Positions 576 to 61,427 of a stretch of DNA of 64,000 nt are shown here, one piece after another. The notes beneath the pieces are model-generated. The model was not told the DNA's origin. It worked only from the letters and a program-made list of their open reading frames with translations, and ran no database searches. Position 1 is the first letter of the stretch. Every line of letters starts with the position of its first letter. This DNA comes from Haliotis rufescens (taxonomy: Eukaryota): contig NW_025964223.1 in assembly GCF_023055435.1 (NCBI RefSeq), positions 43,896,001 to 43,960,000 on the forward strand, written 5' to 3'. The position numbers and the translations under genes are program-made.

Positions 576-859
576 TTTTTTATGAACACTATGGCATACC
601 TTTTGGTTGTTCCGGGTGATTATAGATTGGACTCAGATGTATTGCATATCAGTATATGAACAGAAATAATATTTTGCAGAAAAGCACCGTTTGATCTACT
701 GCAGCTTTAATGAAAATAAATTGATTTCAACAAACATATGCGCTTTGTGGCAAGTACAACCAATCAGTTGTGCTTGATTAGAATTACTACTGTCTGCAAA
801 GTCTGGACAGTTTGTAGAATTATAATGCCCGTTGGTTTCAGTAATATTATATTGTACAG

Positions 860-3744: not shown

Positions 3745-3807
<63 letters not shown>

Positions 3808-7195: not shown

Positions 7196-9076
7196 ATATA
7201 TCTTTTCGTGATGTCATTTACAGTAATCTCTGGATACCTTTTAAGCTTGCTTTTGACTATTTGATTGTTTTATTCATACATGTACCACTGCACTCACCTC
7301 ATGTTAACAACATTTCAACCACTGTAACCACATCAGGAATCTGAAACTGACAATCGCACCCACCTTAAATTTGATTGTAACATGTCAAGCACTGCACTCA
7401 ACATGTGATTATAGGATTTCGACGTTATCCTGCAACTGGTACAGGCTTTTGTTCCTCATTTGTGAGCATTAAAAAGAAACATGTTCATTGTTTGATTTGT
7501 CCTTCAGAAGGTATTAGTCAAAAACGATTTACTCCCAAGATGATATAGTTAAATGTGCTTGGATTAGATATTAGTAATATACATAACATTCAACACAACT
7601 TGCGCAACAATACCATGGTGCTATTACACTATTTTGTTACTTTAAGTTTGTTTAAACTCTGTTTCCTTCTTCTTTCTTGAGGTGCTCTGAGAATCTGTTC
7701 TATTTAACTACCTAAACAGACACAAATAACAACGTATACAATACACATTGACGTATACAATCAATCACATAAACAATCACATCGTTGTCGTTCGGCAGTA
7801 GAATCGAGTTCCCCTAATAAATTGATTAAACAAGATATATATACTTGTGCACTGCGTGTAATTCTCGATTTCCGTTGATTGATCAGGCAGTAGGTAACGT
7901 TATCGATAATGTAAACGAGAACAAGGAAAGTGTTGAACAAAACGTTTTAACATGTGACTCACAGTGAGATAACAGCATAAAGTACAGTGTGTTGAAACCA
8001 TAGCAGTCAACACCAAGCGAGTATAAAGTTCGGGCTTTCAGATGAAAAAAAATGAATGCATGTTTTATTGATGAATCCAAAAATTGGCATGCATGTTGAG
8101 TAGATTATAGTGTTCATAGAGTAGATATCATAGTAGATGTCATCGATGTGAATTTTAAAAACATTAGGTTTCATCGCAATACTGCTTCAAATATGCTGTC
8201 TTCAAGAAACTGATAAATTCTGTGAAAGGTAATGGTTTTTAAAATTCAGTGTGAAGAAGTGATAATGAGCAGCATTCAATAGCCCTGTCGGAGACGATTT
8301 AGCATCATGCTTATCTGTGCTTACATTCAGCACTGAAGTTTGGCTTCAAGATAAAGTGTTAAATGAGGCCGCAAAAACTAATGATATTACCTCTATTAAC
8401 TTCAAATCTATGTGAACACTCTTTTAGCTTTGTGCGAGTGATAATACACAGTTTCTTGGTATTTTTCATGAGATCAAAGGTCACGATGACAAAAGGGGTT
8501 CGCCTGGTATTAATCACCATTTGATAGTGATGCATATACACATTATAATGATATAGACGGAATTGTACAATGGACTCTGCTTTGTGCAGAGATTTCGTAT
8601 GATTATGAAATGGGTTTTGTCGCTCTTATTTTATCACCAAAGGTATAAAATGCGATCCTGTTTTGAAAATGTATTCATGTGAATTAGTCCAAGCTCAATG
8701 GCATCCTTTCGTTTATCACACAAGTAGCTATAGATCTGTATCAGTATCTATGACGATGTTTTATCTACATGTGTTTCTGTCAAAAGTCAAGGTCGTCATT
8801 AAAGGCATTTGTCAAAACAGTGTTATGCATTGTTATGCATTTTTACGAACGCTGTGTGATTCTAATACTTGGTATGTCTAAAATATAATCTCCTCCAAGT
8901 TGAAAGCCCGCATAGTTATTATTTTATCACGTTTACTTTCATGACGGGTTCGCAGATAACAACATAAAACACTTCCTCGTCCAGGTTAATTTTATGCTAT
9001 GTATCGATTTCATAAATAGCGGTAGAGACTACTTAAATGATTTGGGTAGTGTATGTCACAATCTCCACACAAGGTG

Positions 9077-12000
9077 ATGATGCAGTGGATGTTTGCTGTA
9101 ATAGCTGTTGGATTATCTGCCTTGGTCAATGTCTGTCAAGCAGAAGGTAAATACTATACAAAGCATCAATAATATGGTATAGAGATCTAGGACATACAAA
9201 TAATATTGATTTGAAATTAACGGTAACTCCATTATCGACTTTCTGATAAGTTTATAGGCATAAGCGAGATTTGTACCGTGAGTGACCCTCACATGGCCAT
9301 ATCCACGTATCTGGAACCTTTAAACCCACAGATATTGACTGTTGGAGCCAAAGAAAGGCGGCTAAAATAGTGAACATGCGAGTGTTCATGTTATATTGAA
9401 CATTGTTCTGTTATGACGCCCCCTGCACCGTCTACTTTTGTAGGTTTTATGGACGAATAGTAGTAGTACCGTAACGGTACTGCATTGTAACCTGATGCCT
9501 GGCGTAAAATCACTGTATGGCGTCATAAAAGAATGTAACTGCCCATTACGAATGGAGAGAATTATATCATTACGCACGTTTTCTTTTGTTATGTTGTGAA
9601 ATATGTAGGATGCTAACACATTGATATTATGATGTTTTGGTATAGATAAACGTTTCATCCATAAGTGGTTACAGCTTTCAAAAAAGTTAAATATTTTTAT
9701 TATGCGTGTATGCTAAAATACGTATATTTTCAAAAGTAAAAAAATTGAACAAAATTGAATAAAAATTACCCGTTAAATATTTTCAAAGTACTTCATACGA
9801 CTCTTGCTCCAAAGCTGTCTGATCACTAATACAACATTCAAGGCCAAAATAGTTTTATGATAGACATATGGAGAACATTTCCAAAAGTGTCGGTCCAGTG
9901 ACAAAAATCATGTTTAATGCAATTCCCTATTTTGACTTGTATCATAAACTTTATTCCCGTGGTCTATTTTCGGTGAACCATTTTTAGGCCTTTGCAAGTG
10001 TTTGTGACGGGTGGCAGCAGTGTGGCAGAAAATGGTCACCTTTCAGCAAACACTCGGTATCATCACTATTTCATAGTGATCAATAAACACATGCTCATGG
10101 TGCAGTCACAATAGTAAACTTGAAATTTCTTATGACCGTGGAAATGATTTCGTCGCTGTTTTAAGTACTATAGGAGAACTATTTTGTACAAATAACACAT
10201 ATAAGATGGTAGACGCGCGTTTTTTCTTAATTTTGAAGTTTATGTTTGACAAATTCCCGTTATTCTTTGTTTCTGTAGGTTCTCTGGGTGAATTGATCCA
10301 ATTATTGGCAAATTTCATGTTTCTCCAAGCGTTGTTTGCAAGTTTTATTTATAAAACATACGCTTTTCCTTAGCTTCTACTCCAACTCCCTTTACAGACC
10401 CCATATATTAGTATATATTTGCCAGAGAGTCTCGGGGCCCAAAAAGTAACCATTAGACACACAGTTTCAAGTGAAACTTTCTGGATTAATGAAACAGTTT
10501 AGTGAACAGTGTGCCCTGTGTCAAATATATTTATTACTTACCCGTTAACTTTGCTAGAAATTGTCTATCTATTTGACTTTTTCTGTTGCATTGATGGCAT
10601 ATATGTGACAACTACATCACATAAGGTGAAATTGTTTTGCAGAGGTGGAGATGTGCAATGAGGGATATGCGAGCGCACAGAACATCAATCTGACAATAGC
10701 TTTGACTCCATCTTCCTTTAGATGTTGTTGTCATCTAGATTTCAAAGCAGCTCAGACAGTATGGAGAAGGACGACTGTGGACTGTGGAATAACGCTTGTT
10801 CATGATGTAACATTCCTTGACAAAAACTGTAGTCAAAATACCAGCATTTCTCAGGCGGTCGATCAGAATAAAACAGATCTGTGTGTTGTTCGGGAGAACG
10901 GCCTTCAACAGAACAAGTCACTCACAGGCCATATGATATTGCAAGCGACAAGTTATGGTATTGTATTCAGTCTGAATCCTTATCTATTATATCATGCAGG
11001 ATGTACAGCATCACTCTATTATCTTAATGTTGTTGGCTTCTATCCCTTGGTAATTTGTAATGTTTGACTTTGACGTACAACTGATCAACCTGATATGTTT
11101 TTCATTTTGCTCGTTATTAAAACTATCATACAATTTGTTTAAAAAGTATTTCAAAACATGATCAGAAATATTGTTTTCTAGCATAGTTTAGTAACGATCA
11201 TCTAGAACTTCAATACAAATAGATTGATGTTAACAAACTGACACGCTTTGCGTCAATTACAACCTATCCGATGTTCGTAGGAGATGTAATGCTTGTTGAC
11301 TACAGTAATATAATGTTGTACAGACATAGACGTGAACTGCAGTGAGCCAGTTTTGATGAGTCCAAGCACTGGTTCCAATCCGCCAGGTGTGTCCGAGGTG
11401 AAGCCAACTACAGAATCAACTACTCCGTCAACGTCTTCAGGCAAGGAAGAACAAAACACAATGATCCACATGGAACATCAAATGATACATGTACATAATA
11501 TTACAATAATGCATTTAATTATGTCTAAACACACAAGCTAAACGTTAAACATCACAATACCCAAAGGTTGATATTTGATAATACGTCAGGATTATTTATA
11601 GGCTTCAACACTTCATCTTTGGTGTAAATTGTATGATCACAGCACACGATGCCCATTTGTTAATGTATAATATGAATGTGTTGTGAGATCCGTGAGTGAG
11701 GTTGGCTTCACACTGCATTGAACAGTATTAGAGTTATACCACGATGTGTCAGTTGACAAAGGAGAAAAGCCCGAAGTGATGCAAGTCTTAGACGTTAACA
11801 CATTTGGTTAAACCCATGAGCACGGGTATGATGCTACATACCCGATGAACGTACCGATATCTGCTGTACATGTAACAAAAACATTATATTAGTTCAAAAA
11901 CTAACTGTTTTCTCGCGAAAGATTTGATACAATAAAAGAGATAGTTTAAATTGAAGATGAACATTATCAGAGTGTATTAGGATCAGAAACGTTTCAAAAG

Positions 12001-13344
12001 AGAGTCTGATTAAAACGTTCTGGGGACATGAAAAGCATCAATATTTTCAATGTGTAAAATATATGTCTCATGATTCCGTAGGACTTTACATAGCGTTAGC
12101 GGTGGTTGGAGGCCTCTTGATGTGCATCGGTGTTGTATGCGTGATATTGTAAGTACACAGTAAAAGGTGATCATTTTCGTTATGTAAATGTGTGTGGAAA
12201 AAAACAGGGAAAAACTCACGACCTTAGCAGTACATCAGTTTGTTAAATATGAATTTAGAAATTTGTTAACGTTCAGAAATTCGCATTTACAATTTAACGT
12301 TACGCATTCACTCTGAAAAAAATCTTTCCGAATGTTAACTGTATGTAAAATGCATGGTTCTGCAGTGTTGTTTTGTCACAGAAGTAACAAATATAAGGTT
12401 AAACATACAGAGAAAATGGTAAGATAGCTGTTGCAATACGATCCATTTCCAAGGCGATAACAATCGTAGAAATATTTCTCTTTAGAAAGTATTTATTTAC
12501 TTGCAGGGTACATCGGAGGATCCAAAACTTTCCTGTGCCACAAGAGGCAGATTGTGATGTTCAAGTGAAGAGGTACAACGAAGACATTATTTTACATGTT
12601 GACCAGGCAGAAAACCAGAAAGAAACAAACGTGCCAGCGGAATGTGCTTGTGAAGATAACGGAAATAGGAGTGGCCAGGCCATTTATGGCCATTTTGATG
12701 ATGTTGACAACACAGAAAAGAACCAGGAAAATATAATTTACGAATCACAATTGACGGCTTCCTGCAATACTCTGAAACAGTACATCCAGGGCAACGTAGT
12801 GGGAGGAGATTATTATGAGGACGTTGACAACACAACAACGAACCAGAAACAGATCCCTGAATCACAATCGACAGCTTCGTGTAATTCTCTGGAACAGAAT
12901 AGCCAGGACAAGGGAGTCGGCGGAGATTATGAGGACGTAGACAACCCAACCCAATCGACAGCCTCATGTAATACTCAGGAACAGTACAGCCAGGGCAAGG
13001 GAGTCGGCGGAGAATATGAGGACATAGACAACACAGCAAAAAGCCAGGAAGATATCTCTGAATCACAATCGACGGCTTCTTGTAATTATAGTCTGAAACA
13101 GCGCAGCCAGGGCAACGTAGTCGGTGGAGATTATGAGGACATGGACAACACAGCGGATGTCAAGGAGCAACCGGCAGGACCAGGAAAGGTTGAATCTGAA
13201 AGATGCATCAAGGACATCATACAGGATAATGCATATGAAACAATGTCCATCGGAGAGGGTTATCGCAGACCAGCGTCCATTTTACAGCTTTGTCCCGAGA
13301 CCATCCTTAAAACTGGTGATATTTATGCGAAAGTGAAAAAGTAA
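9077..13344 (+). CDS. Receptor A2: complete type I membrane protein, predicted 468 aa
   Basis: Exons 9077-9146 (signal peptide MMQWMFAVIAVGLSALVNVCQAE), 10643-10957 (Cys-rich ectodomain), 11324-11440 (stalk, GC donor), 12082-12148 (TM GLYIALAVVGGLLMCIGVVCVIL), 12507-13344 (tail). Sum is 1407 nt = 469 codons, with no internal stop. Confidence 0.87.
10643..10957 (+). CDS. A2 Cys-rich ectodomain exon (315 nt)
   Basis: ttttgcag acceptor and G|gtattg donor. Pattern C-x22-CCC...C-x14-C...C. Several N-glycosylation sequons (NLT, NCS, NTS, NKT, NKS). Confidence 0.85.
12507..13344 (+). CDS. A2 terminal (cytoplasmic) exon with YED repeats
   Basis: ttgcag acceptor, in frame with ORF 12535-13344, ends IYAKVKK*. 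Confidence 0.88.
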
Positions 13345-19467: not shown

Positions 19468-22400
19468 ATGGAGCAAACAGAACTTGGTATCCTGATAACA
19501 TTGACACTACTGGCGGTGTGGAGATTCCCTGCTGCAGGTCAGTGTTGTGACGTGTGTCAGTTGTTACAGACCCGCGCAATGTATTGTATCAATACTAGTT
19601 ACATGTAGAGTACAAATGTCTCACGTGTCGTGTGTCTCATGTCATGAGCTCAAGGCAGTATCTGGAGCGAATGTATAACGGCTGGTAAATTAACTCAGAT
19701 ACTATCAACAACACTCTCATATTAGTTAACGTGAGACTATATTTTTATTGCAGCACTTTTGACCTCGATCCGACCTAAATATTAGTATGTGGCCATCAAC
19801 GGAGAGTTTACTTTATGTTTTGTTTGTTGTTTTACGCCGCAAACAGCAGTATTCCAGCTTTATCAGAGAGCTTGTAAATGACAGCAACATAGAACAAAGG
19901 AAAAACAATAAATGAGTAAACCATTTATAGGTATTTGTGAAAGTTGTCAGATACCCTGCGTTTACTGAAGAAACATAACCCAATGACGATGATGGGGTTG
20001 GTTTGTTCCTCACATTCACCATCACAATGGTTTCCTTATATGATTGAAATAAGTGCAGAGGGGGAGTCTTTTGGTAATCTTTAATAATTTCGAAACAAAA
20101 TGACCAAATGAGAAACAATGTTAAAGGAATAATTATATAAAACACATCAAAGAGCATTTTGAAGGCAACAGAAAACTGCAAATGAATATAGAAATGTAGA
20201 AATCTCTAATTTTAAGGCGTCATGACCATGCGAAGTTTTTTGTATATATTTAACGTTCACTTTCTACAAATATCTGCCACCATCTAGGATCTTTATTATT
20301 AGATGGTTCTGTATTTTAAATCTCCGTAAAAGGCGACTATGCTTGTCGTAAAAGGCGACTAAAGCCAGGATCGCTGACGTGGTTGATGCATGTCATCAAT
20401 CCAAATTGCGTGGATCGATGTTCATGATGTCAATCACTGGATTGTCTGGTCCAGATTCCAGGTCCAGATTATTTACAGACCGCCTTCGTATGGCTGAAAT
20501 ATTGCCCTATGCGGGGTAAATCAAAACCAACCAACCAACCAAATCATCTCCATTTGCCGAAAACATATTGGCACACATATCGAGAACAGCTGGTATTACG
20601 GGGCAATAAATTTCCGGTCATTCACCAAGTAGACTGCAGACCCTAAGTGCCCTTGCCTCGTCTTTCGTACAAGTCATAAAACTGTTGTTGGTTTACGTGT
20701 AGGTCGGGACTAATAGCTTGTAGTCTCTAATTTGACGTTTCTCAAAGGGTTTGAGATATGTTTATGACTGCGACACCTCACACCAATACACAGTCCGGGG
20801 GCTGGTTCTAGGTAAAGGTCTGTAACTGCTATTGTGTGATCTGTGTAGTCGTCGTCGAGGAGGCGTGGTAAATGAGAATGTGACAGGGGTCCTGTTGTCG
20901 CAAGTCAATATCCAAAATATGGGCATATGTATAGCCCGTCAAATAAAATGCTGACTCAACATTTTATGCGTTTACCTTGTCACAATTAACCTCTGCAGTC
21001 TGAATACGTTACTTTGTCACACATATCCAACTTTCCAGTCTACAGATATGTTTGTGAAATTCAGCATGATAAATATAATAGATTATTGTCAGTTTGTACA
21101 ATGAGCTTGGAAAATAAAAACGATAGTTACTGATTAAGTACAATGCTATTGCAATTTTATATTCAGTTTAGTATGAAGCTATTTGCTAGTTGTAAAATAG
21201 TATTAGGGGCGGATCAGCTACAGCTTCATTGATGTATGACTACAGAAAGCAGAGGATTAGCCAGTTTCAGTTCAGGTTCTCAACTGAACAAGTGCAGTAT
21301 TTTGATATTCAAGAAGCACATTCACAGTATTGATTGAATGGTCTTTGAAATTTTCGTTCAAGATCGCTTTTTGAATTGCTTGTTGGAAAATCTTACCCTG
21401 TATATGTGTGTTTCTGTGAAGAAAATCAGTGTTTCAACAGTTCAGACTGGGGTTGGGGCAATGGGGTAGTCTGGTGATTAAGTTTCACTCCAAAGGTCCA
21501 GGTTAGATACCCCACAAATACATGTAGGTACAGTACGTGAATCCCACTTCTTGTGTCCTCAGTCGTGAGGTTGCTGGAATACAGCTAAAAGCGGCATAAT
21601 TAACTCACTCAATCACTTGAGGGACCATATTTGAGGGGACCGTCTAATAATACTTCAAAAATACATTTTAAGAGTACTCTTGTCGTGTAACAGTCAAGTA
21701 GTTATTATTGTAATTCAAAAATGATACATGAAAGGTTTGCAAATTATGAAATATAATTAGGGCGTTCCATCAGAGACCAAATAATCTATTATATGGTCTC
21801 TGGTTCCATTTTATTCTGATATGTAAATGTTACCAGATTTCAAGGGCAGAATGTGAGAAGATCTTACATCCTCTCCATCAAACAACTGTACAGCATCTGT
21901 CTATGACCATTGTTAAAGCCAGCATCTAAAACAATCGTTGTGAAATATATAATTGTGATCCTTGAACTTTCACTCAACATTTTCCTGTTGTATCATGGGC
22001 CGGATCATGGTCTCAGATTGAGACTGAGTTGTCATACTTTGGAAATTTAGAATGGACGTCATTATAAAATCCCAAGAAATTAAAGAAAATGCAAACTTTG
22101 TAAATTAGACTGTGTTGAAACCGAGTATCGCTTCCTGCTTATTTGTCCATCGTATGTCAAGTTACGGCAACTATATCGCAAAGCAAAGTTCTATTGTCAT
22201 CCTAACGTCCATAAATTTAATTTGCTTCAGTCATCACCAGATACATATATTATTACAAATCTAGCAAAATATCTATATCGTGCAAATGAAGTAAGAAATG
22301 CGAAACTGAAAGCTTAAAACCTGTCTGTACTCAACTTTTGTACACAAAGGCATGTGGCCAATATGTATTGGAAATGAAATGAATGAATGAGATCATTGGC

Positions 22401-25400
22401 CTGTGGAACTGAATATCAGTTCTCTATTCTACTTAACGATGAAAGGTAAAACTGTTTACGATGTCGACTGACATGTGTTGATGGTATTACAAATACGTCT
22501 TTACATGAAGTCATTTGGTTTCGTCTAGTGTGCTGTGCATTCCATAGGCTCAAATTCGGTCACATTACGATAACAATTTGCTATAATAAATAGAAAAGAT
22601 ATCGTTCTTGTTAAATCGAATGGGTGCATTCCAGTGGTGCGGCCATTGCTCGACATTGTGATGTGTTACATGCTACATTTGTTGTCCTGTTATGGATGTA
22701 AAAGCGGCACCGATTTCTTCAAAAGAAGATGTTGCACTTCCAATCAAAATGTAGAGACAGTAAAGTAACCTAGTGAAAAGCGATGGACTAGACTAACATC
22801 TAGTCTCTGAAATAAAATATATTACATGAAAAAAAAAGTTATTAAATTACAGTTATAACATTAACATATACTACAAAGAAGACCAGGGTCTTCCTTCATT
22901 TCCTGATACAGCAGTAATCTAGACTTGCCAAATATAATGGACTTGCATGGGCTATTTTGGATATATTTGTTTCAGGGTCTGTATGACAGACTAAGCGAGG
23001 GATATCCCATTCAAAAACCGGTGTTCGATTCCTACTTCATTAAAATGTGTGAAGCCTTTTTCGGTGTTCCACTTCCGTGATGCTACTGGAATGTTGCTAA
23101 AAGCGGCGTAAAATCATACTTGTTAACTCACTAAGTCGCAAGATGATAACTCGTTGTTTCGTTTCTTCCCCAGGTGTGGGTATCTGCAGTAACGGGAACA
23201 CAGCAGATAACGACATCACCTTGAATCTGTCCACGGCGGTTTCCGGCGAAGTGTGTTGCTGCAGTTACACAGTAGCCATGGATACACAATGCACAAATCT
23301 CTCATCTTTCATAGAATACGACTGTAGCATCAATGTCTCTTTAGAATATCCCCCAATTCCTGCATGTGGAGCTGTAGGTAGCTGGTCAAGTGGTTGTGTC
23401 ACGGACACGAACAAAGACTACTCAATATGTGTCAGTCGTACTACCAGTGGACCCGTCCAGCTGGGAAATATACGTCTCAAAAGTGAAGGTACATACTAGT
23501 TTGTTTATTAGTCTCATGCACAAACATACTAGTTTGTTTACTACTCGGACCGCCTCCGTGGTATAGTGGGAGAGCGTCCGCCCGGAGAGCGGAAGGTGCG
23601 GGGTTCGATCCCCGACCGCGTCATACCAAAAGACGTTAAAAGATGGTACTTGTTCTTACCCTGTCTGGCGCTCGGCATTAAGGGGCTAAAACAAGGACTG
23701 GTCGGCTTGGAGTCAGTATACTGTGTCTGAGTGGGGTATTCATGTTAAACTGCGGCATGGTATCTCAGTGGACTAGCACTATAAATCGGCATCAGTCCGG
23801 ACGAGTACATGCATGTACATACTATTCCTTATATATTAGTTTGATTCAGGTACATACCGGTGTCTGTTTATTAGTTTAATACAGCTGCAGGTATATGGCA
23901 GTGTTTGTTTATTAATCAAATACATATATATTTATTCGTTAGTATATTGCAGGTACACAGAAGTGTATATTTAATAACATAATACATAACTGGTGTTTTT
24001 TATTTGTATGTTACAGGTTAATACCAGTTTATATGTATCTAGTACAGATTCATTCTGGTGTAAATGTATGTCTAATACAGGTACATTCTAGTGTTATATA
24101 TTTGTCTAATACAGATACATTCTAGTGTTTTATATTGGTCTAATACCGGTACATTCTAGTGTTTATATATTGGTCTAAAACAGGTACATTCTAGTGTTAT
24201 ATATTGGTCTAATACAGGTACATTCTAGTGTTTATCCATTTGGCTAAAACAGGAACATTCTGGTGTTTATATATTTGTCTAATACAGGTACATTCTGGTG
24301 TTTATATATTTGTCTAATACAGGTACATTCTGGTGTTTATATATTTGTCTAATACAGGTACATTCTAGTGTTATATATTTGTCTAATACAGGTACATTCT
24401 GGTGTTTATATATTGGTCTAATACAGGTACATTCTGGTGTTTATATATTTGTCTAATACAGGTACATTCTAGTGTTTTATATTGGTCTAATACAGGTACA
24501 TTCTAGTGTTTTATATTGGTCTAATACAGGTACATTCTAGTGTTTTATATTGGTCTAATACAGGTACATTCTAGTGTTTTATATTGGTCTAATACAGGTA
24601 CATTCTAGTGTTTTATATTGGTCTAATACAGGTACATTCTAGTGTTTTATATTGGTCTAATACAGGTACATTCTAGTGTTATATATTTGTCTAATACAGG
24701 TACATTCTAGTGTTTTATATTGGTCTAATACAGGTACATTCTAGTGTTATATATTTGTCTAATACAGGTACATTCTGGTGTTATATATTTGTCTAATACA
24801 GGTACATTCTAGTGTTTATATATTGGTCTAAAACAGGTACATTCTAGTGTTTATATATTTGTCTAATACAGGTACATTCTGGTGTTTATATATTTGTCTA
24901 ATACAGGTACATTCTAGTGTTTATATATTGGTCTAAAACAGGTACATTCTAGTGTTTATATATTTGTCTAATACAGGTACATTCTGGTGTTTATATATTT
25001 GTCTAATACAGGTACATTCTGGTGTTTATATATTGGTCTAATACAGGTACATTCTAGTGTTTTATATTGGTCTAATACAGGTACATTCTAGTGTTTTATA
25101 TTGGTCTAATACAGGTACATTCTAGTGTTTTATATTGGTCTAATACAGGTACATTCTAGTGTTTTATATTGGTCTAATACAGGTACATTCTAGTGTTTTA
25201 TATTGGTCTAATACAGGTACATTCTAGTGTTTTATATTGGTCTAATACAGGTACATTCTAGTGTTTTATATTGGTCTAAAACAGGTACATTCTAGTGTTT
25301 ATCCATTTGGCTAAAACAGGTACATTCTGGTGTTTATATATTTGTCTAATACAGGTACATTCTGGTGTTTATATATTTGTCTAAAACAGGTACATTCTGG

Positions 25401-27958
25401 TGTTTATATATTTGTCTAATACAGGTACATTCTGGTGTTTATATATTTGTCTAATGGAGGTACATTCTGGTGTTTATTTATTTGTCTAAAACAGGTAGAT
25501 TCAAGTGTTTAACTATTCGTCTTATACACAAATGTTAATTATAATAATATAATTATAATTATTGTTAAAGGGCGGTTTCGCATTGTGAAAAACAACTTAA
25601 GGAATTATCCGAACTGATCCCCTACCGCGACATATACTGCCACGGAAATGCAATTTAACTCATGTCAGTTTTAACAAATACAACTGGACTGGCATCTTAA
25701 CGGGCACATCGTTCTTTTCACGTGAGGCCCCTCGTGAATATGTTTACTATCACCCTATGCAACTGAATCGGAGAGAGTGTTCGTGTGGTTTTATACTGTG
25801 TGAAAACGAGACAAGTTTTCTGAAAGAGCAAATGTTTAACAACTTGGTGACCTCACTGCCGACATTTCTCTATGTGTAAATGAATTATATACATCATCGT
25901 AATAAACTGACTCTGTTTCAGCTCTGGTGAACCTCACATGCAATTACAGTGAACCTCAGAGGACAAGCGGTATGTTACCTTAATACTCACTGGCACACTA
26001 TATATATATATAGTAATAACTAAATAAGAGGAGTAAGATTGAACATAGTTTTAATTGGCTAGCGCTTTCAACTCGTACCGCGTACGAGTCTCATCAGGCC
26101 ATAACCGAATAACGGACATGAAAATAACATAAGTTACTACTTCATGTCAGATCTCATTATTCTGACATGGAAGTATGAAAAATAATAATATCCTTTACCC
26201 CTCCAGCTCCTCCTGCAACGGCAACACCGGAGGACAATACATTGACAGGTGAGATGGGGTGTGGGAGGTATATTAGTGTACTTCAGAAAATCACGATGGG
26301 GGCACGCTGTGGAAAGATCACTGAAAATCAAAGAAAGGTCTCTCGTTAAATTAACCTTAATGCTAACAGTGATTTGGGTTCCGATTTGATTTATTGTCAA
26401 TCTCTCTTAACAAATGGAGAGGGCACGGGTGGCCAAGTCGTCTAAGGCGCCGCGATTCGCTGTGCAGAGTTGCGTCCCTTGGGCACGCCAGAAACCTATT
26501 ATTGTGGTTTCGAATCCCGGTTCGCCCTGATTATGTTTCTAGGTTTGTCAGCACCATACCCGTGCTCGTTGGTTTCGCCGAAGTGGTAAACGTGTGAGAC
26601 CTGCATCACTTCGGGCTTTCCTCCCACATTAAGCTGACACGCCGTGATATAACTGGAAAACTGTTAAACTAGGCGTTAAACCAAACTCACTCACTAACAA
26701 TTGGAACCCAGGCCGTTTTGTTTGTTTGTTTAACCCCGCACTGAGCATTATTCCAGCTATATGACAGCTGCCTGCTTCTAGACCAGACAATCCAGTGATC
26801 CACGCCGTCGGGGTATGATGACACGCAATCAACCAGGTTACTGACCCTGACTACCCGATCCGTTTAGTCGCCTCTTACGACCCGGATAGGAAGCTGGGGC
26901 CCGACTATTAATGTACATGTATTTCAAACGATCAAAACGCACGGTCAACTTATTTCGATCAAAACCTTATTACAGTTAAGTTTGCATAAAACAATAATTT
27001 CCTGATTATTCCCACAGATGGGGCTATCATTGGGATCGTGGTTGCTGTATCGGTCGTCATCGTCGCCGTCGTCTGTTTAGTATTGTAAGTTAAAATATAT
27101 TTAAATGGAAATATTAATAATTTCTTACAATTATATCATATATCAATCGACATATTTATTTAATTTATTACAGAAAATAAGATTTATGACAAATGTTATA
27201 TTTGGGATGTACACTTTCTTAGTAAAGTACAGATTCTCGGACTTTTTTGGGGTTGAGTCCCGTTCGGGATTCGAACCCACACTTGCCAGAGTGAGGCACC
27301 TAATCACTTAATCGCCAGCACACAAAATCATTGTGTATTTAATGAAAATAAAATTGTTTCCATTTAGCTACAAAAACTGACACAATGACCCCACCTGTAT
27401 TAATATTTTATTTTGAGCCTTCTGATTGTAGACTATTTTGTTTGAACGGCCATTAAGGATGAATAATATTCTGCGTGAAAATGGGCGTCACATATTGTAT
27501 CCATGATGAGGATGTAACCGGGTCCTTCAGCGTGACCTACGACCGCTTTAACCGTTAGGCTACCTCACAGCCCATTAATTACAATAGAAATGTGCAACAA
27601 AATCGCTCACAACTGGAAATGTACTTTAATGCATTAGCGTCATTCGTCTTTCAGAGCGCGAGTAAAGCTGAAGGCTAAAAACCAGGACAGGGACAACATC
27701 AGCACCATCCACGCCGACAGTCTGTTCGGCGACGATGGCAATGACGTCATAATGCCTACAACCACTCATGCCAAACGTGGGGCAGATAACTCCGGGTACT
27801 ACCAGGGCGCTGCCGCCAAAAAGACTGGTGTCCGAGTACCCAAGAAGCAACTACTACGGGTAGATACCTACTTGGAAGACCAAAACGGAAAGTCGCCATT
27901 CGGTCAAGTACCGAAAACGTCCAAGACGAACAAAGAAGAGGCCAACTTTGTTTATTAG
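19468..27958 (+). CDS. Receptor B: complete type I membrane protein, predicted 281 aa
   Basis: Exons 19468-19537 (signal MEQTELGILITLTLLAVWRFPAA), 23174-23488 (ectodomain), 25922-25969 (ALVNLTCNYSEPQRTS), 26207-26248 (APPATATPEDNTLT), 27018-27084 (TM DGAIIGIVVAVSVVIVAVVCLVL), 27655-27958 (tail, in frame with ORF 27752-27958). Sum is 846 nt = 282 codons. Signal, ectodomain and TM exon lengths (70, 315, 67 nt) equal those of A2. Confidence 0.85.
20322..20541 (+). mobile_element. SINE-like repeat (family 4, AACC tail)
   Basis: cgtaaaaggcgactatgcttgtcg...ggattgtctggtccaga...aaccaacc shared with 32485-32758. Confidence 0.75.
21451..21615 (+). mobile_element. SINE family 1, degenerate
   Basis: gggtagtctggtg...gctggaatacagctaaaagcggc...actcactc. 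Confidence 0.6.
23174..23488 (+). CDS. B Cys-rich ectodomain exon (315 nt)
   Basis: ttcttccccag acceptor and G|gtacat donor. C-x22-CCC pattern shared with A2. Confidence 0.85.
23547..23802 (+). mobile_element. tRNA-headed SINE (family 2) in B intron 2
   Basis: A box tggtatagtgg and B box ggttcgatccc; copies also at 2870 (+) and 42745-42851 (-). Confidence 0.8.
24040..25500. repeat. 33-34-bp minisatellite (aatacaggtacattctagtgttttatattggtct), about 40+ copies
   Basis: Seen directly; lies in B intron 2. Confidence 0.95.
26419..26695 (+). mobile_element. tRNA-headed SINE (family 3)
   Basis: ggtggccaagtcgtctaaggcgc...ttcgaatccc head, ACTC tail, and taacaa.tgga TSD-like flanks. Copies at 30735-30983 and 60460-60752 (-). 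Confidence 0.8.
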
Positions 27959-35180: not shown

Positions 35181-38100
35181 ATGGACGTCTTGTTGACTCT
35201 CGTTTTCCTCTCACTGCCGTCAGTAAGCTCAGGTAAGAATTCACGGGTATGTTACCTAATATAATGTGTAATGGGAGCTCAGTCAAGCATTACGATTTAA
35301 GTATCTATGAGACACATTAGCCATTGTGTTTGACATCAGTATTTGTTCCCCAACCGGTTAGAAATAATCAAGTTCATAAAATAGTAAACCTTCACCGTTG
35401 TATTGTTTACGTCATCCGAAGCAGTATTCGAAATAGACATCGGTCCGTAGGATTTGTCCTCGGGATGAGAGTTTCAAATTTCACTTTATTTTAAGCTGTA
35501 AACATCGTAAATAAATCATAACACTGAGATTGCTTGGTGAAACAGGGTCCAGCTTCAAAGTACGAGGGGCGGTCGGGTAGTCTAGTAGTTAAAGCGTTCG
35601 CTCGTCACGCCGAAGACCCGGTTTCGGTTCCCGACATGCGTACAATGTGTGAAGCTCATTTCTGGTGTCCCCCGCCGTGGTATTGCTGGACTATTGCTAA
35701 AAGCTGCGTAAAACCATACTCACTCACTGAAAGTACTTTCAACACCACAGGCTGTTGTACCGGCCGCACCGTAGCCACGTCAAAATAATATGTTGTTTCA
35801 TAAACCTACCTGTCATATCATTTATTTAAATCTATCACTTTTCACAATGTCTGCAAATATGTACTTCATTTCAATTTACCATATTTTATCAATAGATTTA
35901 AAATTATGAATTATTTCCCGCAATGTTATTGAAAATGAAAATCTGGGACACATGCTTCGACAACGGGTCCAAATCAAACATGTCAAAGAGCAAACCAAGG
36001 ACGTTTCAAGCAAATCGTAAATAAATTAAGTGGTCAAATCGCCAGTACACAAAGTCAGCGATCTAACCCACTCAGCCGGACTTTCATTTTGTGGAAGCCT
36101 CGGTGGCTGAGTAGGTTAGATCGCTGACTTTGAGTGCTGGCGATAAGTTAGTTCCTCACTCTGGCAGTGTGGATTCGAATCTCGGATGCATGAGACTCAA
36201 CCCCAAAAACAATATCATTAAAATCAGACCTCAGTTCTCGCTACCGCAAAACAAAGATCTGAGGACATCCCATTAGGGGTCACGTCAGAACGACCTTTCA
36301 TCCGACCAATCAGAGCATCACTTACCAGATTATGAAAGTGACAGTCGGAATGGGATTTCTAATCATGCAACCTCGAAAACTTTAACTGCCAAAGAAAGTT
36401 ACAGGTTTAACGCCTGAATTCATACAATCTAGACCATCTATTAGCCACACAGAATGTTCTTTTGTTCAGGTTTCAAATTTGTAATCGAGAATTTGTCAAA
36501 ATATGTTTCGAAACGTAGTCGCCAATTTGAAATTAGTGCCGTAAAGCATGAGAAAGCTGCCTTCTGATTGGTCATTCCATTGGTCGGTCAAAGTTCGCTC
36601 AAGGTCGGTCTGACGTGACCCGTAATGGGATGTCCTCAGATCTTTGTTTAGCTGTAGCAAGAACTAAGATCTGATTTTAATGAGATTGCCCTAAAAAGTA
36701 CGAGAATCTGTACTTTACTGTCATCCTAAAGATAACATGTGTTACCTCTAAGTAACACTTTCCACCTTTTCGTGAGATCGTGTAATATAAGTCAAATGAC
36801 ATGTCTGCATTTGTCGCCTCGGTTTTCGGCTCGAACACGATGTTTATTGCCAAAATACATGCTTGAGAAATCTTTGTCTTTCGTCTAAATCTTAAAAGTA
36901 AATCTGAATACGAAAATACCAATTGCGAGGTTACTGTAATATTACTGATGTTCTTACGATACCAAACATCGAACGAATCTTCGCACATGTTATTTATACA
37001 AAGCTTCGAAAACGTTGGTATTTAAAGGGTATTTGTCATGCCACTGAGCGGAAGGCCACTCTAATCGGGACATATGTGATGATAGATCGTACTTAAACTT
37101 CGTTTTTTATCATTTTCTGATTACTTTAACAATGAAAATAAAAAAGAAAGAAGTCAGTGGATAGCTCTATTATGAAATGTTAATGTTGCCGAAAATCGCC
37201 ATAATTTTGGCTTCCTTGGTGCTTAACCTCGACGATATGTATGCGTCAGCTTAATTATTTCATTAAAAACGAACTTAATTTATTCAATAATGTATTAATG
37301 AAATAATGTGATAAACATAACTGTCATATTTATAAACAGTCGGATTTGACCTTTCACATGGTGTTTGCCATGAAGTAGCAAAGGTGTTTTACAAGCTGAT
37401 AATTTCCTTCATAACTGTAGGCTTCATCTATCACCACTGAGTCTCTGGGAAGTCGGTGTGATCGCAGTAAAAGCTTCTGATCTGGTTGACTGGCAGTGTT
37501 TTGTAGTTTAATATGCAAGAGAATGTCTGTCTTGTCCACTAAAATGTTTGGGCCTACAGGTTTTGAAATGTGCTGGCCCTTAAGGCTCTCATTTTACTCG
37601 ACGTGTAGACGTCATTTGACAATTGGTCGTGATCAGTGCATTTTTCAGAGGCTCAAAAGAATTAAGAAATAATGGGTAATTAAGAAATGATTGCATTCGT
37701 ATGTGCGTCATACTGATTTTACGAAACTCTTGTAAGACTTGGTGTGTTACCCTCGACTCGCTCGGGAAATACAAGAGCTCTGACACTCACGCTCGTATGA
37801 TAATCTCTATGTAATTATTTTCTACTGATGCCACCTAGACATTAGGTTATCTATCTATGTGTGATCTGTCTATAAACATGTGAGTAGATGTCCGAGTTGC
37901 CCATAAAGACCCCGGATAGTTTGCACATTTTATTTGTTGAACGAGTTCATTGCAGTACCCATGTTAAGTATACTATACCATTTAAGAATCCTTCTTGTTG
38001 TTTTGTCGGGGAATACAATATTCATGTACCCTACCGCCGAGTCCGAAACATTCATCTGTTCGAGACTATTGCGGTTCTTACATTATTAGAAGTACCACAC

Positions 38101-41100: not shown

Positions 41101-41627
41101 ACTTTGGAGCAGTCATGGATCCTGGTGGATACTGAGTCACCTGATAGATTTATCCCGTATGTCCATCTTGTAAGGTGTTATAATGTTGGTGATTGTGATG
41201 ACATTATGTGTTTTATTGCAGTTGGTATCCTTGCCGCTGGACTTGCTACAGTAGCTGTGCTAGTCGTCATGGCTTGTGGAACATACGTCGCCATATCAAG
41301 GTTCATATGTTTAAGACAACCAACTAAACGTCATCTTCAAACGTTATCTTGTCAACACAAATGTAGACGACTAAATAGAACATGCAGCTTAACTTGACGA
41401 GTATGTGTAACGGTTGGTATCAGTGGAAAATGTTGGTGTAATAAACAAGATGAATTATGGTGTTGTGTTACAGACGAAGACGCCGGACATCCCACCGTCA
41501 GAAGCCTGCAGCTAACGACATTCCGATCTCTGTTGTCCATCCCACCTACTCAGGGCTCACGTCCAGAACAGAGGAGCCAAACAGCATCTATGACACAATA
41601 GACAATCCATATACCAGTGTGCCATAG
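35181..41627 (+). CDS. Receptor C1: complete type I membrane protein with ITAM-like tail, predicted 271 aa
   Basis: Exons 35181-35232 (signal MDVLLTLVFLSLPSVSS), 39316-39681 (ectodomain), 40338-40502 (stalk DLLNIECFEPNTNSS...), 41222-41300 (TM VGILAAGLATVAVLVVMACGTYVAI), 41474-41627 (tail ...HPTYSGLTSRTEEPNSIYDTIDNPYTSVP*). Sum is 816 nt = 272 codons. Confidence 0.85.
35566..35728 (+). mobile_element. SINE family 1 in C1 intron 1
   Basis: Full-length copy with aaagtac TSD-like flanks. Confidence 0.88.
36210..36688. mobile_element. MITE with ~80-bp TIRs and 9-bp TSD (Mutator-like), nested in a tRNA-headed SINE
   Basis: TIRs caatatcattaaaatcaga...gtcacgtcaga and tctgacgtgac...tctgattttaatgagattg. 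TSD ccccaaaaa (36201-36209) and ccctaaaaa (36689-36697). Confidence 0.85.
38816..38984 (+). mobile_element. SINE family 1 in C1 intron 1
   Basis: Full-length copy with TSD ctcaa[c/t]ggcgatgt. Confidence 0.9.
39316..39681 (+). CDS. C1 Cys-rich ectodomain exon
   Basis: Within ORF 39279-39767. tgtcaag acceptor conserved in C2 and C3; G|gtgaga donor. Confidence 0.85.
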
Positions 41628-45800: not shown

Positions 45801-47227
45801 TTTATACACATACGGCAACACAGCTATACAAGTAGTAACAATGACACATGTTTGAAGTCGTATCTATTATACACTTACTTCCTGCTGGTGGTAAACATTA
45901 CCGTACATTTCTGTACTTTGTATACCCCATGCTGTAACATGGGCGTATATGTCACCACCGGCCGTGTCCTTGAAGTGTCGTTAACGATTTCCAATAAACA
46001 CCTTGAATGACGCATGTTTATGGGAGACTAAACTGGAATGAACCTGGTGTAAATGGAGGTTTCATGTCAGACTCGCTGTGTAGATTAAGCGTGACATAAA
46101 CTCACTTGAAAACGAATTATACTTCCAGCTGGTCTGTTTAGGTGATGCAAACGGCAAGGAGGTCAACGGATGAGGGTGAGGAAGTAGTGGAAACGGTTTT
46201 CAGAGTTGAGTAATTATAAGACAAAGACGTCTGCGCTGTTTCACATGACGGGTGTTGGTGTATTTGGGCATGTTCGTGTACCTATTTCTGTACAACAATA
46301 AAAAACGAGTTATTTCGATTACATATTTTTTGACTAAATATCAAGATTTTGTTTACATGTATCTGTGGCGGTAGAATTCAGAATTATTAAATTGACAATT
46401 CTTGAAATAGAGACAAGAATTTTGTTTAATAGCTTCATGCATGCCTATATACATACATACACTTCTTCGTGAATCTGGACCCGACCGGTCCGGAAATCCA
46501 ACCCTCTAAAACATTACACTGTAGTCAATATTACACAATCCTGAATATGCCTACCCGGCCGATTTATTAGGAAAGGTACAGTCGGGAATAACGAGACTTC
46601 ACAGGATATGTGCCTGGGATATCGAATTATACACAAAGGCGAGATTGGTAGTCATATATACAAAGACCAATTATTATAGCATTTGTTACAAAGCCACTGG
46701 GGCATAACTCAAAGGCTGCTATCGAGGATCACACAACCATCAACTTCCTGGTTGGATGTGAATGTCACCAGACGTATATCACTACAAAGAAGTGCATCTA
46801 AAATTAGATCATCATGGACGTCTTGTTGACTCTCGTTGTCCTCACACTGCCGTCAGTAATCTAAGGTAAGATTTCAGCCATATACCAGTAATTATGTTAC
46901 ATAATAGACTGTGTAACAGGCGCCCAGTCAACATTGCTCTTCATGTGTCAGTGGTCTATATATACTGGTTTTGTACGTATGTCACCCAGACATTAGGATA
47001 TCTTTCTGTTTGTAAACTTTCTATAAACATGTGAGTAGATGTCCGAGTTGCCTACAAAGACCCCTGATAGTTTACACGTATTTATTTGTTGAACGAGTTC
47101 ATTGCAGTACATATTCTTATTATAGTCGTACAAATCACGATTTGCTTGATCGCCCAACCACCGAGACCAAAATAGTTATAATAATAGGCTATTTAATTCG
47201 CATATTTCCACGCCATGCTCAAAGCGC

Positions 47228-54350: not shown

Positions 54351-57300
54351 ATGGACGTCTTGTTGACTCTCGTTGTCCTCACACTGCCGTCAGTAAGCTC
54401 ATGTAAGAACTCAGCCATATGCTGGTAATTATGTTTAACTTATACACTATGTAATAGGCGCTCAGTCAACATTGCTCTTCATGTGTCAGGTATTGGCTTT
54501 GTACGTATGTCACCCATACATTATTAGGTCATCTAACTATGTGAAATTTATCTTTTAACACGTGAGTAGATGTCCGAGTTGCCCATACAGACCCAGGATA
54601 GATTTCACGGTTTTATTTGTTGAACGAGTTCATTGCAGTACATATGCTAAGTGTTCTATCAAATTTGAGACTCTTCTGTGTTGTTGGTCAGAGAACATAA
54701 TAAGATCTCCAATATACATGAAGTTAAATTACGATTCGATTGCTTACCCAGCCGCCGAGACCAAAATAGTCAAAATAATAGGCTATTTATATTGCGCATA
54801 TTTCCACACCACTGCTCAAAGCGCTATTATTACCCCGGTCACTGGATCAATGTGCACTTAAGAATCATTCCCAGCTCCCTGGGGAGTATACAACCCAAGA
54901 TGCCTGCTAGAAGGTTAACAACCACATGTTCATCTCATCCTTTCGGGTACCCATTCACTGCTGGGTGGAAAGAGGCACATTTCGAAAAAGGTCACTTGCC
55001 CAAGGAGACGCCACATGTGTTATATGTGCTTCAGGCTAAGGCAGAACGGAAGTCCTAGAAACTGTCAGGAGCCAAGCTGCCGAAACGCGGTCACCCATTC
55101 AAGGACGCTCCGCGACCGACGCTGATAGCCTATCTCTTTCCAATAGATCGTATCCTTATTAACAGTATGTATACCACCCGACGATGTTTCATAGACTCAA
55201 TGAGTAATATGTAAAATTGTAAACTTGCACATATATGATGAGTTCATTTGACTTAATTCCACCCCGTCCTGTTTTCTACGTCCCATTTCCAATACGTCTA
55301 AATGTGGAAGTTGTAACACCATAGTGTACTTCTAAGCCATGCCAGTGTCGCTTCATTTTCCCAAGCGCGAAACGAGTGTGTTTTAATTCCTGCAATATAT
55401 TTTTCATAATTATCCCTGTTAGGTGATTTAAATATGGTGGTAAAATGTGTGCGTTGTGTAAGCGAACATTCTGGGAAATATAGCCGATCTGTGATTGTTA
55501 CTGATTCCTGAATTCTTACATACAAAATACAGTCGACTGTGTCAAAGGGAGTCACTCATCACTTCTACTATAACCAAAGAGAATGTGTTTGCTGAGATAT
55601 TGCTGATACGACATTAATTGTACCTCACCCACTTAGAACACAGAAGTATCATTATAATAATCTCCTTAAAATCAAATCTTTTACTCCGTAATTCTCGTGA
55701 TAGGAGGTCGAATCAGGTGATCAGGTGTTACTTGAAAAGGAACATAATCGAGGAGATCCGATTGCTAAAAAGAGTAAAGCCGCGCTAATACATAGTTGTG
55801 GACATTTTAAACATTATGGCATCTACACCCAAAAGGGTGCATTAATCGTGGGTCATTTTGTTTTCTGTGGTGGATTTCTTTTGCTGAGATCGAAATTTCC
55901 GAATGTTGGTGATAGAAAAATAACCCATATGTGTAAGAGAAAGCTGACATCTAACTTGCCCTCGCATACTTTATCAGTTTGATTGGGCGGTCACAACTCG
56001 CTCAGGGTTCACCTGACGCCACCTTCTGTTGGGTATCGGAGTAGAAAATCTGATTTAAGTGAGATTGATATACATAAGGAAACTCAGTAGGTAAAATCTC
56101 TGTCACTCACTTAGAAAACAGAAATAACATTATCTTTACTCCTACACGATTCCTCTCTGCGTGGAGATCTGAGACAGGTGGTCGAGTCAGGTGAACTTTC
56201 TAATCAACCAATCAGCGTCGAGGCTGCCATATTCTCGGCACCAGTGACAAAAGCATTCAGACAAGCAAATTTGATTTCTGTTACTCGAAAACGAATATAA
56301 CTGAGGAGTTCCGTAGCCAAAATGTATAACCGCACTATTGCTGTTGTGGATATGTTGAACATCCACCCGTTTCTGAGCGCCATGACATCTATACCCAAAC
56401 CGGGGCACTATCGAGGGAATTTTTGTTTTCTATGGTTGTACAGAAACGAAGTGGAACATAAATAAAGCAGATACCTCTTACAAAACTTACACATGAACGT
56501 CTCACGCATCCTAATTGTGTTTATTGGTACCGTCTGCGGAGATGTATGGGAGTAAACTTGAGTGAGACTGATATATACAAAGAAACCCAGTAGTTATAAA
56601 CACGACTGTAACACTACGCACTGATCTTTGTCATACATCAAATCATTTATGACACTGGTTATTGTCTTCTACCAACTGAATTGTCTTATGATATAAACAT
56701 GATATTTAGAATCTGACGAAAAGTATTAACATAATGTGTTTTTTCGGTATGGATATCGGCGTATGTGTACATGATGTACTGTATTTCCGTGTAACTGTAG
56801 GGTGTGACCGTTAAAACATAATTTGTATTTACTGTCAAGGTCTACAGACATGCTCCTCTGGGACAGAGACAGGCTCCAACCAAATCCTACTGGATGTGTC
56901 TACAACACAGATCAACACAGGGGGAGAGATGTGTTACTGTAGACTGATCGTGTCACAGACAACACAGGTGGAGATGTTCCCTACTAGCTTGACAGAACAA
57001 TGTGATATATCCATAACCATAAAGAAGTGGAGGACTAGTTCACAGTGTACAAATGGTGCTGCTCAAACTATACCTGGACAGACTCACACTGTCAACACCA
57101 GTGAGGAGATATGGATACTGGTGGTGGCTACAAGACCTGGAGCCAGAGGACTGTTAGGACAGCTGCAGTTCAGGCTTAAATCGTCATCAGGTAAGAAATA
57201 TGAGGGCTCAAAAATGATCGAATTGATTATATTGTTTTGACATAAAAATGTATTAATAATATACATTTGGATATAGATGTATATATTCCATTTAAAAAGA

Positions 57301-59019
57301 AAAACGGGTAGACAATGTACTACACATGGAGTTGTTCAAACTGCACCAGCTCAGTCTCTCACCGTCAACACTGCTGAGTAGATATGGATACTGGTGGTGG
57401 CTACTTGGTCTGGATACAGAGGACTTTCAGGACAGCTGCAGTTAAAACTTAAGGCAACTTTAGAAGTGAACAAAAACCTTATGTATTATGTTCATGGTGT
57501 TCGCAGTTAAATTTTAATTTTCACATCATAACCCCAAGGGGATTCTCAAAACAATTAAAGACAAATAGTATTGATGCTTCGTTTTCATTTCAACAGGCCA
57601 GCTGAACATAGAGTGTTTCGAGCCAAACACTAACAGTTCCACTTCAACAGGCTCGCTTTCAACAAAAACGTTGACATTTACCATTACAACTTCTCCCAAA
57701 ACAACAGCAGTAACGACAACTACAGAGAGACTTACATCTACACCCCCGCATACCACAGAGACACTGCGACCAACCGCCATCACTCCTCAAGGACAGACCA
57801 CATCTGTGTCTACTGGATTAACTGCAGGGCCAGGGACTACTAAAGCGACATTCACTACAACTCAGATCTCCATGAAAGGATGTCAATCGCGTAACAATGA
57901 CTTTCCAGGTACAACTTCCTAAATGTTTCTACGCATATGGTTCAAAGCGTGGCACGCACTCATGCATGTAATGCCCACATGATATGCCCTTATGTTTCTG
58001 CAATCGGTAAATAGATTATTCAGCAATGGTTTTATCAACTCAATGATAAAATATGTTCATGCACTGGTGAAAAATATGCATTCAATGTTCCTTGAAACTT
58101 CATTGTATTAAGGGAATATTTCCGTGATGTCTGAACCAGGAAATGACAATATTTCAGTTACACTGCAGTGTGTAATTATAATCCGAGAAGAAAACCCAAA
58201 GTGATGCTCGTGGTAGATTACAGTGAGTGAGTGAGTATGGTTTTACGCCGCGTATAGTAATATTCTAGCAATATCACGGCGGGGGACACCAGAAATTGGC
58301 TTCACACATTGTACCCATGTCGGGAATCGAACCCGGGTCTTTGGCGTGACGAGCGAATGTTTTAACCACTAGGCTACCCGATCGCGCCTGTGGTAGATTA
58401 CAGGTATAATGTGAAGCACAGAAGCATCAATATCTTACTGACAAACCAAGGTTCATAATCGAAAAACATCATGCTGTACATATAACACTTCGGAGCAGTC
58501 CTTGGATCTTGGAAGTAATTAAGACATGATACAGATTCATCCGGAGTGTCCACATAGTAAGGTGTTATAATGTCTGTGATTGAGACAACATTATGGGTTT
58601 TATTGCAGGTGGTATCTTTGCTGCTGGAGTTGCTACAGGTGCCGTGCTGGTCGTCATTGCTGGTGCACTATACGTCGTCACATCAAGGTACAGACATTGA
58701 AGCCAAATGACTCTAAATGTATGTTTTGTCAACACCAATGGTCAAGGCTGATCGGTACATGTAGACAAACAGGGAGATTATATGTGGCCGTTGATAGAAG
58801 TGGACAATGTTGCATTAATTATACATGATTAATTATGGTTTGTTTTACAGAAGATGGTGGAGGTCCCGCCATGAGAAGTCTGATGACATTCCAGTCTCTG
58901 AAGTCCACCCCACCTACTCAGGGCTCAAACCCAGAACACAGGAGCCGAGTAACACCTATGACATAATAGATCAAAACCCCTCAAAGGGCACAGCCAATCC
59001 ATACATCAATGTGACATAG
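54351..59019 (+). CDS. Receptor C3: complete type I membrane protein with ITAM-like tail, predicted 320 aa
   Basis: Exons 54351-54402 (signal), 56840-57190 (ectodomain), 57597-57908 (Thr-rich mucin stalk), 58609-58687 (TM GGIFAAGVATGAVLVVIAGALYVV), 58851-59019 (tail ...TYSGLKPRTQEPSNTYDII...NPYINVT*). Sum is 963 nt = 321 codons. Confidence 0.85.
54825..55140 (-). mobile_element. Paralogous copy of the 5S-like SINE (C3 intron 1)
   Basis: Near-identical to 47228-47570. Confidence 0.55.
56840..57190 (+). CDS. C3 ectodomain exon
   Basis: Overlaps ORF 56896-57240; G|gtaaga donor. Confidence 0.85.
57312..57463 (+). pseudogene. Degenerate intronic copy of the 3' half of the ectodomain exon (C3 intron 2)
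   Basis: GVVQTAPAQSLTVNTAE*IWILVVAT...GLSGQLQLKLK, with the same TAG as the C2 copy. Confidence 0.7.
58224..58388 (-). mobile_element. SINE family 1 in C3 intron 3
   Basis: 14-bp TSD gtggtagattacag; empty site in C2 at ~51357. Confidence 0.92.
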
Positions 59020-61375: not shown

Positions 61376-61427
61376 ATGGACGTCTTGTTGACTCTCGTTG
61401 TCCTCACACTGCCGTCAGTAACCTCAG
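61376..61427 (+). CDS. Receptor C4 signal-peptide exon (rest of gene expected beyond window)
   Basis: MDVLLTLVVLTLPSVTS G|gtaaga, near-identical to exon 1 of C1-C3 with the same upstream block. Confidence 0.75.

Follow-up and report, generated by a model that had tools for sequence, protein, structure and literature searches.

The locus raises the question of what kind of receptor carries the short, tyrosine-bearing tail encoded by C1 and its tandem neighbours C2 and C3 in Haliotis rufescens, and whether that tail is an ITAM. The original prediction saw in it an FcR-gamma-like ITAM on intrinsic activating or phagocytic receptors, likely acquired by convergence. It was made on the window, i.e. 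the whole 64,000-nucleotide stretch of DNA analysed here, and had missed the TAA in the C2 leader, the long-tail partner gene and the CUB fold described below.

Gene C1 and the short-tail array

Gene C1 is composed of five exons:

35181..35232, + strand: C1 exon 1, leader (signal peptide), with a GT donor in phase 1; start of P0003
39316..39681, + strand: C1 exon 2, ectodomain, rich in Cys and predicted to adopt a CUB fold; AG/GT ends, 100% to P0003
40338..40502, + strand: C1 exon 3, last domain strand and Ser/Thr-rich stalk; splice ends and spliced contigs
41222..41300, + strand: C1 exon 4, membrane helix; fits a gap of 80-81 nt that separates exons 3 and 5 in the contig coordinates
41474..41627, + strand: C1 exon 5, tail; read from the sequence and covered by spliced contigs in 4/4 runs

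Its product matched P0003, an uncharacterized database protein of H. rufescens, and consists of a leader, a predicted CUB-fold domain, a mucin stalk, a membrane helix and a 51-residue tail. Contigs of all four runs (from four studies, and guessed to be RNA) joined the exons in order, the leader being spliced to exon 2 in three of them (X1, X6 and X10). Tail tyrosine codons lie at 41547, 41589 and 41610, ahead of the stop at 41625-41627. A C1-like contig of run X2 displayed C>T at 41556, which places Phe three residues after the first tyrosine (position Y1+3) and may reflect an allele or a close paralogue. In run X2 the C1 tail also lacked six bases (41509-41514), an in-frame deletion upstream of the tyrosines.

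Further short-tail genes follow C1:

46814..51969, + strand: C2 gene; exons 46814-46865, 49753-50100, 50611-50907, 51557-51635 and 51802-51969
54351..59019, + strand: C3 gene; exons 54351-54402, 56840-57190, 57597-57908, 58609-58687 and 58851-59019
61376..61427, + strand: C4 leader exon; the gene runs past the window end (P0008)

The tail exon gave eight genome matches, all inside 100 kb of one contig, and the domain exon 19, of which 18 fell in the cluster region and one, weak, elsewhere. The 464 kb examined contained eight short-tail genes (C1-C8) and then one long-tail gene, all cluster genes being in the same orientation. Tails were near-identical in six of the eight short-tail copies, and three copies were broken: C7 and C8 by a frameshift in the domain exon, and C2, whose leader exon displayed an in-frame TAA at codon 17. 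This TAA was also present in the X2 contig (RNA-type), with zero differing letters, and C2 is likely a null allele or a pseudogene. In the same contig (46865-49761), splicing apparently takes place at an acceptor lying 8 bases further downstream than usual. The C3 leader donor has T at -1; the frame is open in the predicted model, where the leader junction is without read support, and C3 contigs displayed GT..AG joints from stalk to membrane exon and from membrane exon to tail, for which a paralogue origin is possible. Database models of both genes (P0015 for C2, P0055 for C3) start without a leader. Tail tyrosine codons occupy 51865, 51907 and 51952 in C2, and 58915, 58957 and 59002 in C3.

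Incomplete copies of the domain exon, with stop codons, were observed in introns (57295-57468 and matching places in the introns of C4-C7), both before and after the functional domain exon. In database isoforms P0009, P0013 and P0001 the membrane exon is skipped or shifted, so that they are predicted to be secreted ectodomains, and P0002 displayed two ectodomains in tandem.

As predicted, the membrane helices of C1, C2 and C3 were free of charged residues; GxxxG occurred in those of C2 and C3 and was absent from C1. Activation through an adaptor paired with a charged helix was rejected for the short-tail class, since among 12 short-tail proteins checked a mid-helix Asp was limited to C6 (L011, P0005; membrane exon at contig C445:43987535-43987618). 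Such a residue is of the kind that pairs with signalling adaptors, and in this single copy it may reflect drift.

The long-tail gene and divergent neighbours

The long-tail gene (P0014), located 88 kb past the window end, combines an ectodomain like that of C1-C8 with a different leader, a different membrane helix and a 273-residue tail. Each of the four long tails compared displayed 4-6 DxYxxV repeats, and the strict ITIM [ILVS]xYxx[ILV] was found in 0/4. Three genes upstream of C1 (A, B and D) encode more distant versions of the domain, with five Cys in common and other tails:

820..5756, + strand: gene A, 3' part; the window starts just after its ectodomain exon
9053..13344, + strand: gene B; divergent ectodomain at 10643-10957 followed by a stalk, a membrane exon (near 12080-12150) and a long tail
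19468..27958, + strand: gene D; divergent ectodomain 23174-23488, membrane exon near 27020-27085, tail end ..NFVY*

Genes A and B have single-exon tails of 300-350 residues (4704-5756 and 12403-13344, respectively), in which YED[V/I/M] is repeated and the terminal motif is DVYAKV in A or DIYAKV in B; they represent the third and fourth tail types of the domain family. At least four tail types thus occur on one domain family within about 170 kb. Gene D has a homologue, P0024, and its stalk exon was not located. Another domain exon resembling that of gene B is located at contig C445:43684626-43684934, and long minisatellite arrays occupy 17000-18750 (between B and D) and 23809-25528 (inside gene D).

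Predicted fold of the ectodomain

The AF2 model of the C1 domain was a confident beta-sandwich (pLDDT mostly 74-89). In the VIA structural search with this model, the top 19 rows were all CUB-containing proteins (Z 7.0-9.3), Kremen being the best (Z 9.3, rmsd 2.5, 96 aligned); Atlas feature matches for the ectodomain, to be taken as leads only, ranged from 0.81 to 0.85. The C1 ectodomain is therefore predicted, from the model, to adopt the CUB beta-sandwich fold. In sequence searches, five ectodomain exons had no Pfam CUB match at E<=1 and nine exons no significant family in Pfam as a whole, and Foldseek returned no PDB match at E<=0.001. All 17 matches of the C1 domain in sequence searches were from Haliotis, these searches being word-based and missing distant relatives. 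The 50% library returned 13 matches, of which P0023 and P0025 were repeat artefacts by inspection, P0019-P0022 were unnamed, and P0024 was the homologue of gene D.

Conservation of the tail motif

The tail comparison covered 17 records from four named species (14 proteins and three genomic), some of which are isoforms or nearly identical copies; it excluded P0009 and P0013, whose tail exon is read in another frame. The first two tyrosines (Y1 and Y2) and the 10-residue spacer between them were invariant (17/17), so that the expected conservation of tail tyrosines across homologues was borne out. The overall pattern was HPTYxx[L/F]-x10-YDx[I/L], with the third tyrosine of C1 following three residues later. 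Position Y2+3 was I or L in all 17 records; Y1+3 was Leu in eight, all from H. rufescens or H. cracherodii, and Phe in nine, from all four species. The spacer between Y2 and the third tyrosine (Y3) varied in length (3, 9, 11 or 12 residues), and Y3 was missing from four records. A YxN site at the third tyrosine, which the original prediction had proposed as a pYxN site, occurred in 12 of the 13 records having Y3 but not in C1, whose tail has lost both YxN and eight spacer residues.

Conservation also extended upstream of Y1 (D.P.S..HPTY), where D-10, P-8, S-6, H-3 and P-2 were invariant in 8/8 distinct tails. HP[T/A]Y occurred in all tail records, with His where NPxY has Asn, and this invariance points to a putative second reader of the NPxY type. 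Tails as distant as 41-48% identity retained the pattern, and between C8 and the other tails dN reached 0.39-0.54 with dS over 1.3. In 50,000 shuffles YxxL/I-x6-12-YxxL/I arose in 0.5% for the 51-residue C1 tail and in 0.36% for the C5 tail, rates that are uncorrected for the choice of the motif after the tail had been seen. The tail-profile search detected no relatives outside Haliotis (11/11 matches in the genus), which fits the convergence originally proposed.

The predicted YxxL-x10-YxxI with a third tyrosine was present at the expected places in C1, C2 and C3; the tail residues reported were correctly placed, but the C1 end reads NPYTSVP*, the final Pro having been dropped. The canonical arrangement of two YxxL/I half-sites fits C1-C3 and 8/17 records, whereas YxxF came first in the other nine and in the X2 contig. 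A spacer of 6-9 residues was found in 0/17 tail records and the strict x6-12 pattern in 8/17. Published ITAM spacer ranges are 6-8 (PMC5112662) and 6-12 (PMC6994640) in the available sections of these papers, so the 10-residue spacer falls within the widest only. Asp or Glu at -3 of Y1 was absent from all records, His occupying this position in the 8/8 distinct tails. The close resemblance to the FcR-gamma ITAM depends on Leu at Y1+3, and is partly lineage-specific. SIYDTI in C1 does fit the ITIM pattern, as had been proposed, but such a match occurred in 2/17 records only, and an ITIM reading of C1 was rejected as unconserved. Judged from its sequence, the tail forms a tyrosine module that is conserved and ITAM-like, but lies outside the canonical ITAM class.

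Candidate SH2 readers and proposed mechanism

An SH2 exon whose best PDB matches were SYK and ZAP-70 is part of a SYK-like protein of 646 residues, which has two SH2 domains and both SH2 arginine motifs. The genome search also revealed an SHP2-like SH2 exon; Shark was not identified in it beyond one candidate SH2 exon (L085). Other SH2 exons included the adjacent L049 and L050 (C1:61.70 Mb), presumably Csk-like, and L090 (C24:28.43 Mb), which we take to be SLP-76/BLNK-like. Complex prediction between Syk residues 8-262 and the unphosphorylated C1 tail scored 0.00 in two runs, made without alignments and without folded controls, and speaks neither for nor against binding.

We consider the chances about even that C1-C8 belong to a paired-receptor system as its activating or engulfing side, acting through a Syk-type tandem SH2 reader plus a Grb2-type site, with the long-tail gene as their counterpart. 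A ligand, probably microbial or non-self, would cluster the receptor, and a Src-type kinase would phosphorylate the tail. The two SH2 domains of Syk (or Shark) would then bind Y1 and Y2. YxN is in general a Grb2 site, and the terminal YxN would recruit a Grb2-type adaptor, a site lost in C1. The long-tail receptor would read the same ligand with a different output, possibly an SHP2-linked damping through its DxYxxV repeats. SHP2 may prefer DxYxxV-type sites, the literature search having found no paper on this specificity. The absence of a strict ITIM, together with the similar Botryllus motif associated with an activating pair (see below), makes the label 'inhibitory' weak for the long tail. 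As to the activating or phagocytic role originally proposed, the transcribed single-pass product, the conserved tyrosines and an encoded Syk speak for it, but its close FcR-gamma basis was not upheld.

A somewhat unlikely alternative is a CED-1-type or endocytic tail, where HPTY would be an NPxY-like site for a PTB or FERM adaptor such as CED-6/GULP and YDx[I/L] a lone YxxL, either a hemITAM or an AP-2 signal; cargo would be taken up without two-point SH2 binding, which is compatible with the ITAM-like reading. PTB domains read residues before the tyrosine and SH2 domains those after it, and the invariant residues lie mostly before Y1 (8/8 distinct tails), Y1+3 being either L or F. Likewise, in the available sections of the sources, CED-1 signals via NPxY and a single YxxL, possibly free of phosphorylation (PMC8092387), and YxxL/M/V/I/F is termed 'endocytic or ITAM-like' (PMC5112662). 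Yet the first position of HPTY is His and not Asn in all records, and independent sites need no fixed distance, whereas that between Y1 and Y2 is fixed and that between Y2 and Y3 varies. This last argument is modest, since few independent lineages are involved.

One ectodomain on two tail classes

A similar ectodomain occurs within one cluster on two unrelated membrane-plus-tail modules, long-tail and short-tail ectodomains being 57-60% identical in the H. rufescens genome and reaching 94% in models of H. asinina. In the latter species, the ectodomain of the long-tail protein matched that of a short-tail paralogue at 94% identity (stalk 91%), against 57-70% for its long-tail orthologues. Conversely, the long-tail genes of H. 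rufescens and H. cracherodii shared 95% identity over membrane helix and tail against 56-57% in the ectodomain. Across the four species, the single long-tail gene remained orthologous in its leader and its tail only, the ectodomain tracking the short-tail genes. In three of the four long-tail proteins, the ectodomain is preceded by their own long-type leader, which argues against simple read-through models.

A tree of 20 ectodomain rows, four of them long-tail, the group being defined by tail class, needed four changes for these four rows. A long-tail clade was rejected (p-AU 5e-5 with 20 rows; also without three partial rows), the H. asinina similarity having been noticed before the tree was built. 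Two of its 17 inner branches were starred, one long-tail row formed a long branch, and one H. asinina short-tail ectodomain (P0018) fell outside the H. asinina clade. The exchange evidence is at the protein level and comes from database protein models of other species. No recent conversion tract was seen in the H. rufescens genome, where long-tail and short-tail ectodomain exons displayed 70-74% DNA identity and dS of 0.39-0.53. Among C2-C6, ectodomain dN was 0.07-0.13 against 0.01-0.04 for the tail; ectodomain dN/dS was 0.4-1.5, by which positive selection is not demonstrated. Ectodomain exchange between classes, as suggested by these protein sequences, characterises paired receptors of vertebrates, among them CEACAM1/CEACAM3. 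Under the paired-receptor proposal, ectodomain exons would be periodically copied between classes, so that both keep one specificity.

The tyrosines might also signal in the absence of any opposing pair, the family being a birth-and-death array of CUB receptors with adhesive, sensory or developmental roles and with shuffled tails, and homogenisation of ectodomains being a by-product of unequal crossing-over in the tandem array. Such an origin seems unlikely to us, for the long-tail leader and tail alone are orthologous in four species while the ectodomain tracks the short-tail genes, and ectodomains change faster than tails. It would, however, account for at least four tail types in about 170 kb, the three broken short-tail copies of eight and the partial intronic duplicates, and it agrees with the many non-immune CUB roles among the structural-search rows and with a long tail lacking a strict ITIM. 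A chance match of the motif in young, functionless duplicates is very improbable: six of the eight copies are near-identical in the tail and count once, and three are broken, but the pattern was kept across four species in tails 41-48% identical, C8 differs from the others by tail dN of 0.39-0.54 with dS over 1.3, the shuffle rate was 0.5%, and C1 was spliced in four studies.

The broadest form of the paired-receptor proposal is that abalones independently evolved paired immune receptors on a CUB scaffold, a conserved damping receptor and fast-turnover activating decoys (with the non-canonical Yxx[F/L]-x10-YDx[I/L] Syk motif) being matched by ectodomain gene conversion, like CEACAM1/CEACAM3; this is possible, and we put it forward tentatively, with more doubt than belief. 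ITAM-bearing mollusc receptors being already known, the motif alone is of modest interest. The pairing matters more, since a common ectodomain, two tail classes and exchange are hallmarks of pathogen-driven vertebrate paired receptors. If true, the same design would have arisen on a non-Ig scaffold, the range of motifs read by Syk would be widened, and the cluster would be a candidate resistance locus for abalone aquaculture, with copy loss and allelic variation of the signalling motif. No description of the abalone family or of mollusc paired receptors was found in the literature searched, subscription papers being outside its scope.

Comparison with known systems

The likenesses and differences given here follow the available sections of the cited papers. 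Biomphalaria PTC1/PTC2 are likewise gastropod single-pass gene clusters, linked to parasite resistance; the terms CUB, ITAM, tyrosine and cytoplasmic are absent from the main text of that paper (PMC7494358). Sequence searches found no homology between the abalone genes and PTC1/PTC2.

Hydractinia Alr (10.1101/2022.03.04.482883) and Botryllus FcoR (PMC12582321) are also invertebrate clusters with related ectodomains and varied tyrosine-motif tails. Unlike the abalone genes, they are members of the Ig superfamily, encoded at loci that govern allorecognition in colonial animals. The x6-9 spacing is respected by Alr ITAMs (10.1101/2022.03.04.482883) but not by abalone tails. The FcoR core-2 motif [A/D]VYxxV resembles the abalone long-tail repeats; it is associated with an activating pair and its function is unknown (PMC12582321).

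Draper/MEGF10/CED-1 similarly combine an NPxY-type site with YxxL or an ITAM, with Syk/Shark as reader (PMC8092387). Their ectodomain is of the EMI plus EGF type, instead of a single CUB-like domain with stalk, and their NPxY and ITAM are separate, whereas both overlap in abalone (HPTY). The ITAM of Drosophila Draper has a long spacer.

Oyster CgIgR, likewise a single-pass receptor of a mollusc that carries a two-tyrosine motif of its own, was reported to recruit CgSyk and to promote hemocyte phagocytosis through ITAM-Syk signalling (PMC6994640). It differs from the abalone receptors by five Ig domains and by its motif, where -3 is acidic, both +3 positions are occupied by Leu and the spacer has 8 residues, and the available sections make no mention of a paired partner (PMC6994640).

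A close parallel is offered by CEACAM3/CEACAM1 and Xenopus Ceacam. These display an Ig fold with true ITIM/ITSM, against a predicted CUB fold and DxYxxV only in abalone, and homology is not claimed. Their ITAM is split by introns, whereas the abalone tail is encoded by one exon, and the opposite gene orientation tied to conversion (PMC5112662) contrasts with the same orientation in abalone. Xenopus pairs display ITAM-like YxxL/M/V/I/F motifs, a conserved YxN and ectodomain conversion (PMC5112662). As in abalone, CEACAM genes form a tandem cluster with one ectodomain on an ITAM-like and on a second tail class, the intrinsic ITAM-like tail carries YxN, and ectodomains are closer between paralogues than between orthologues.
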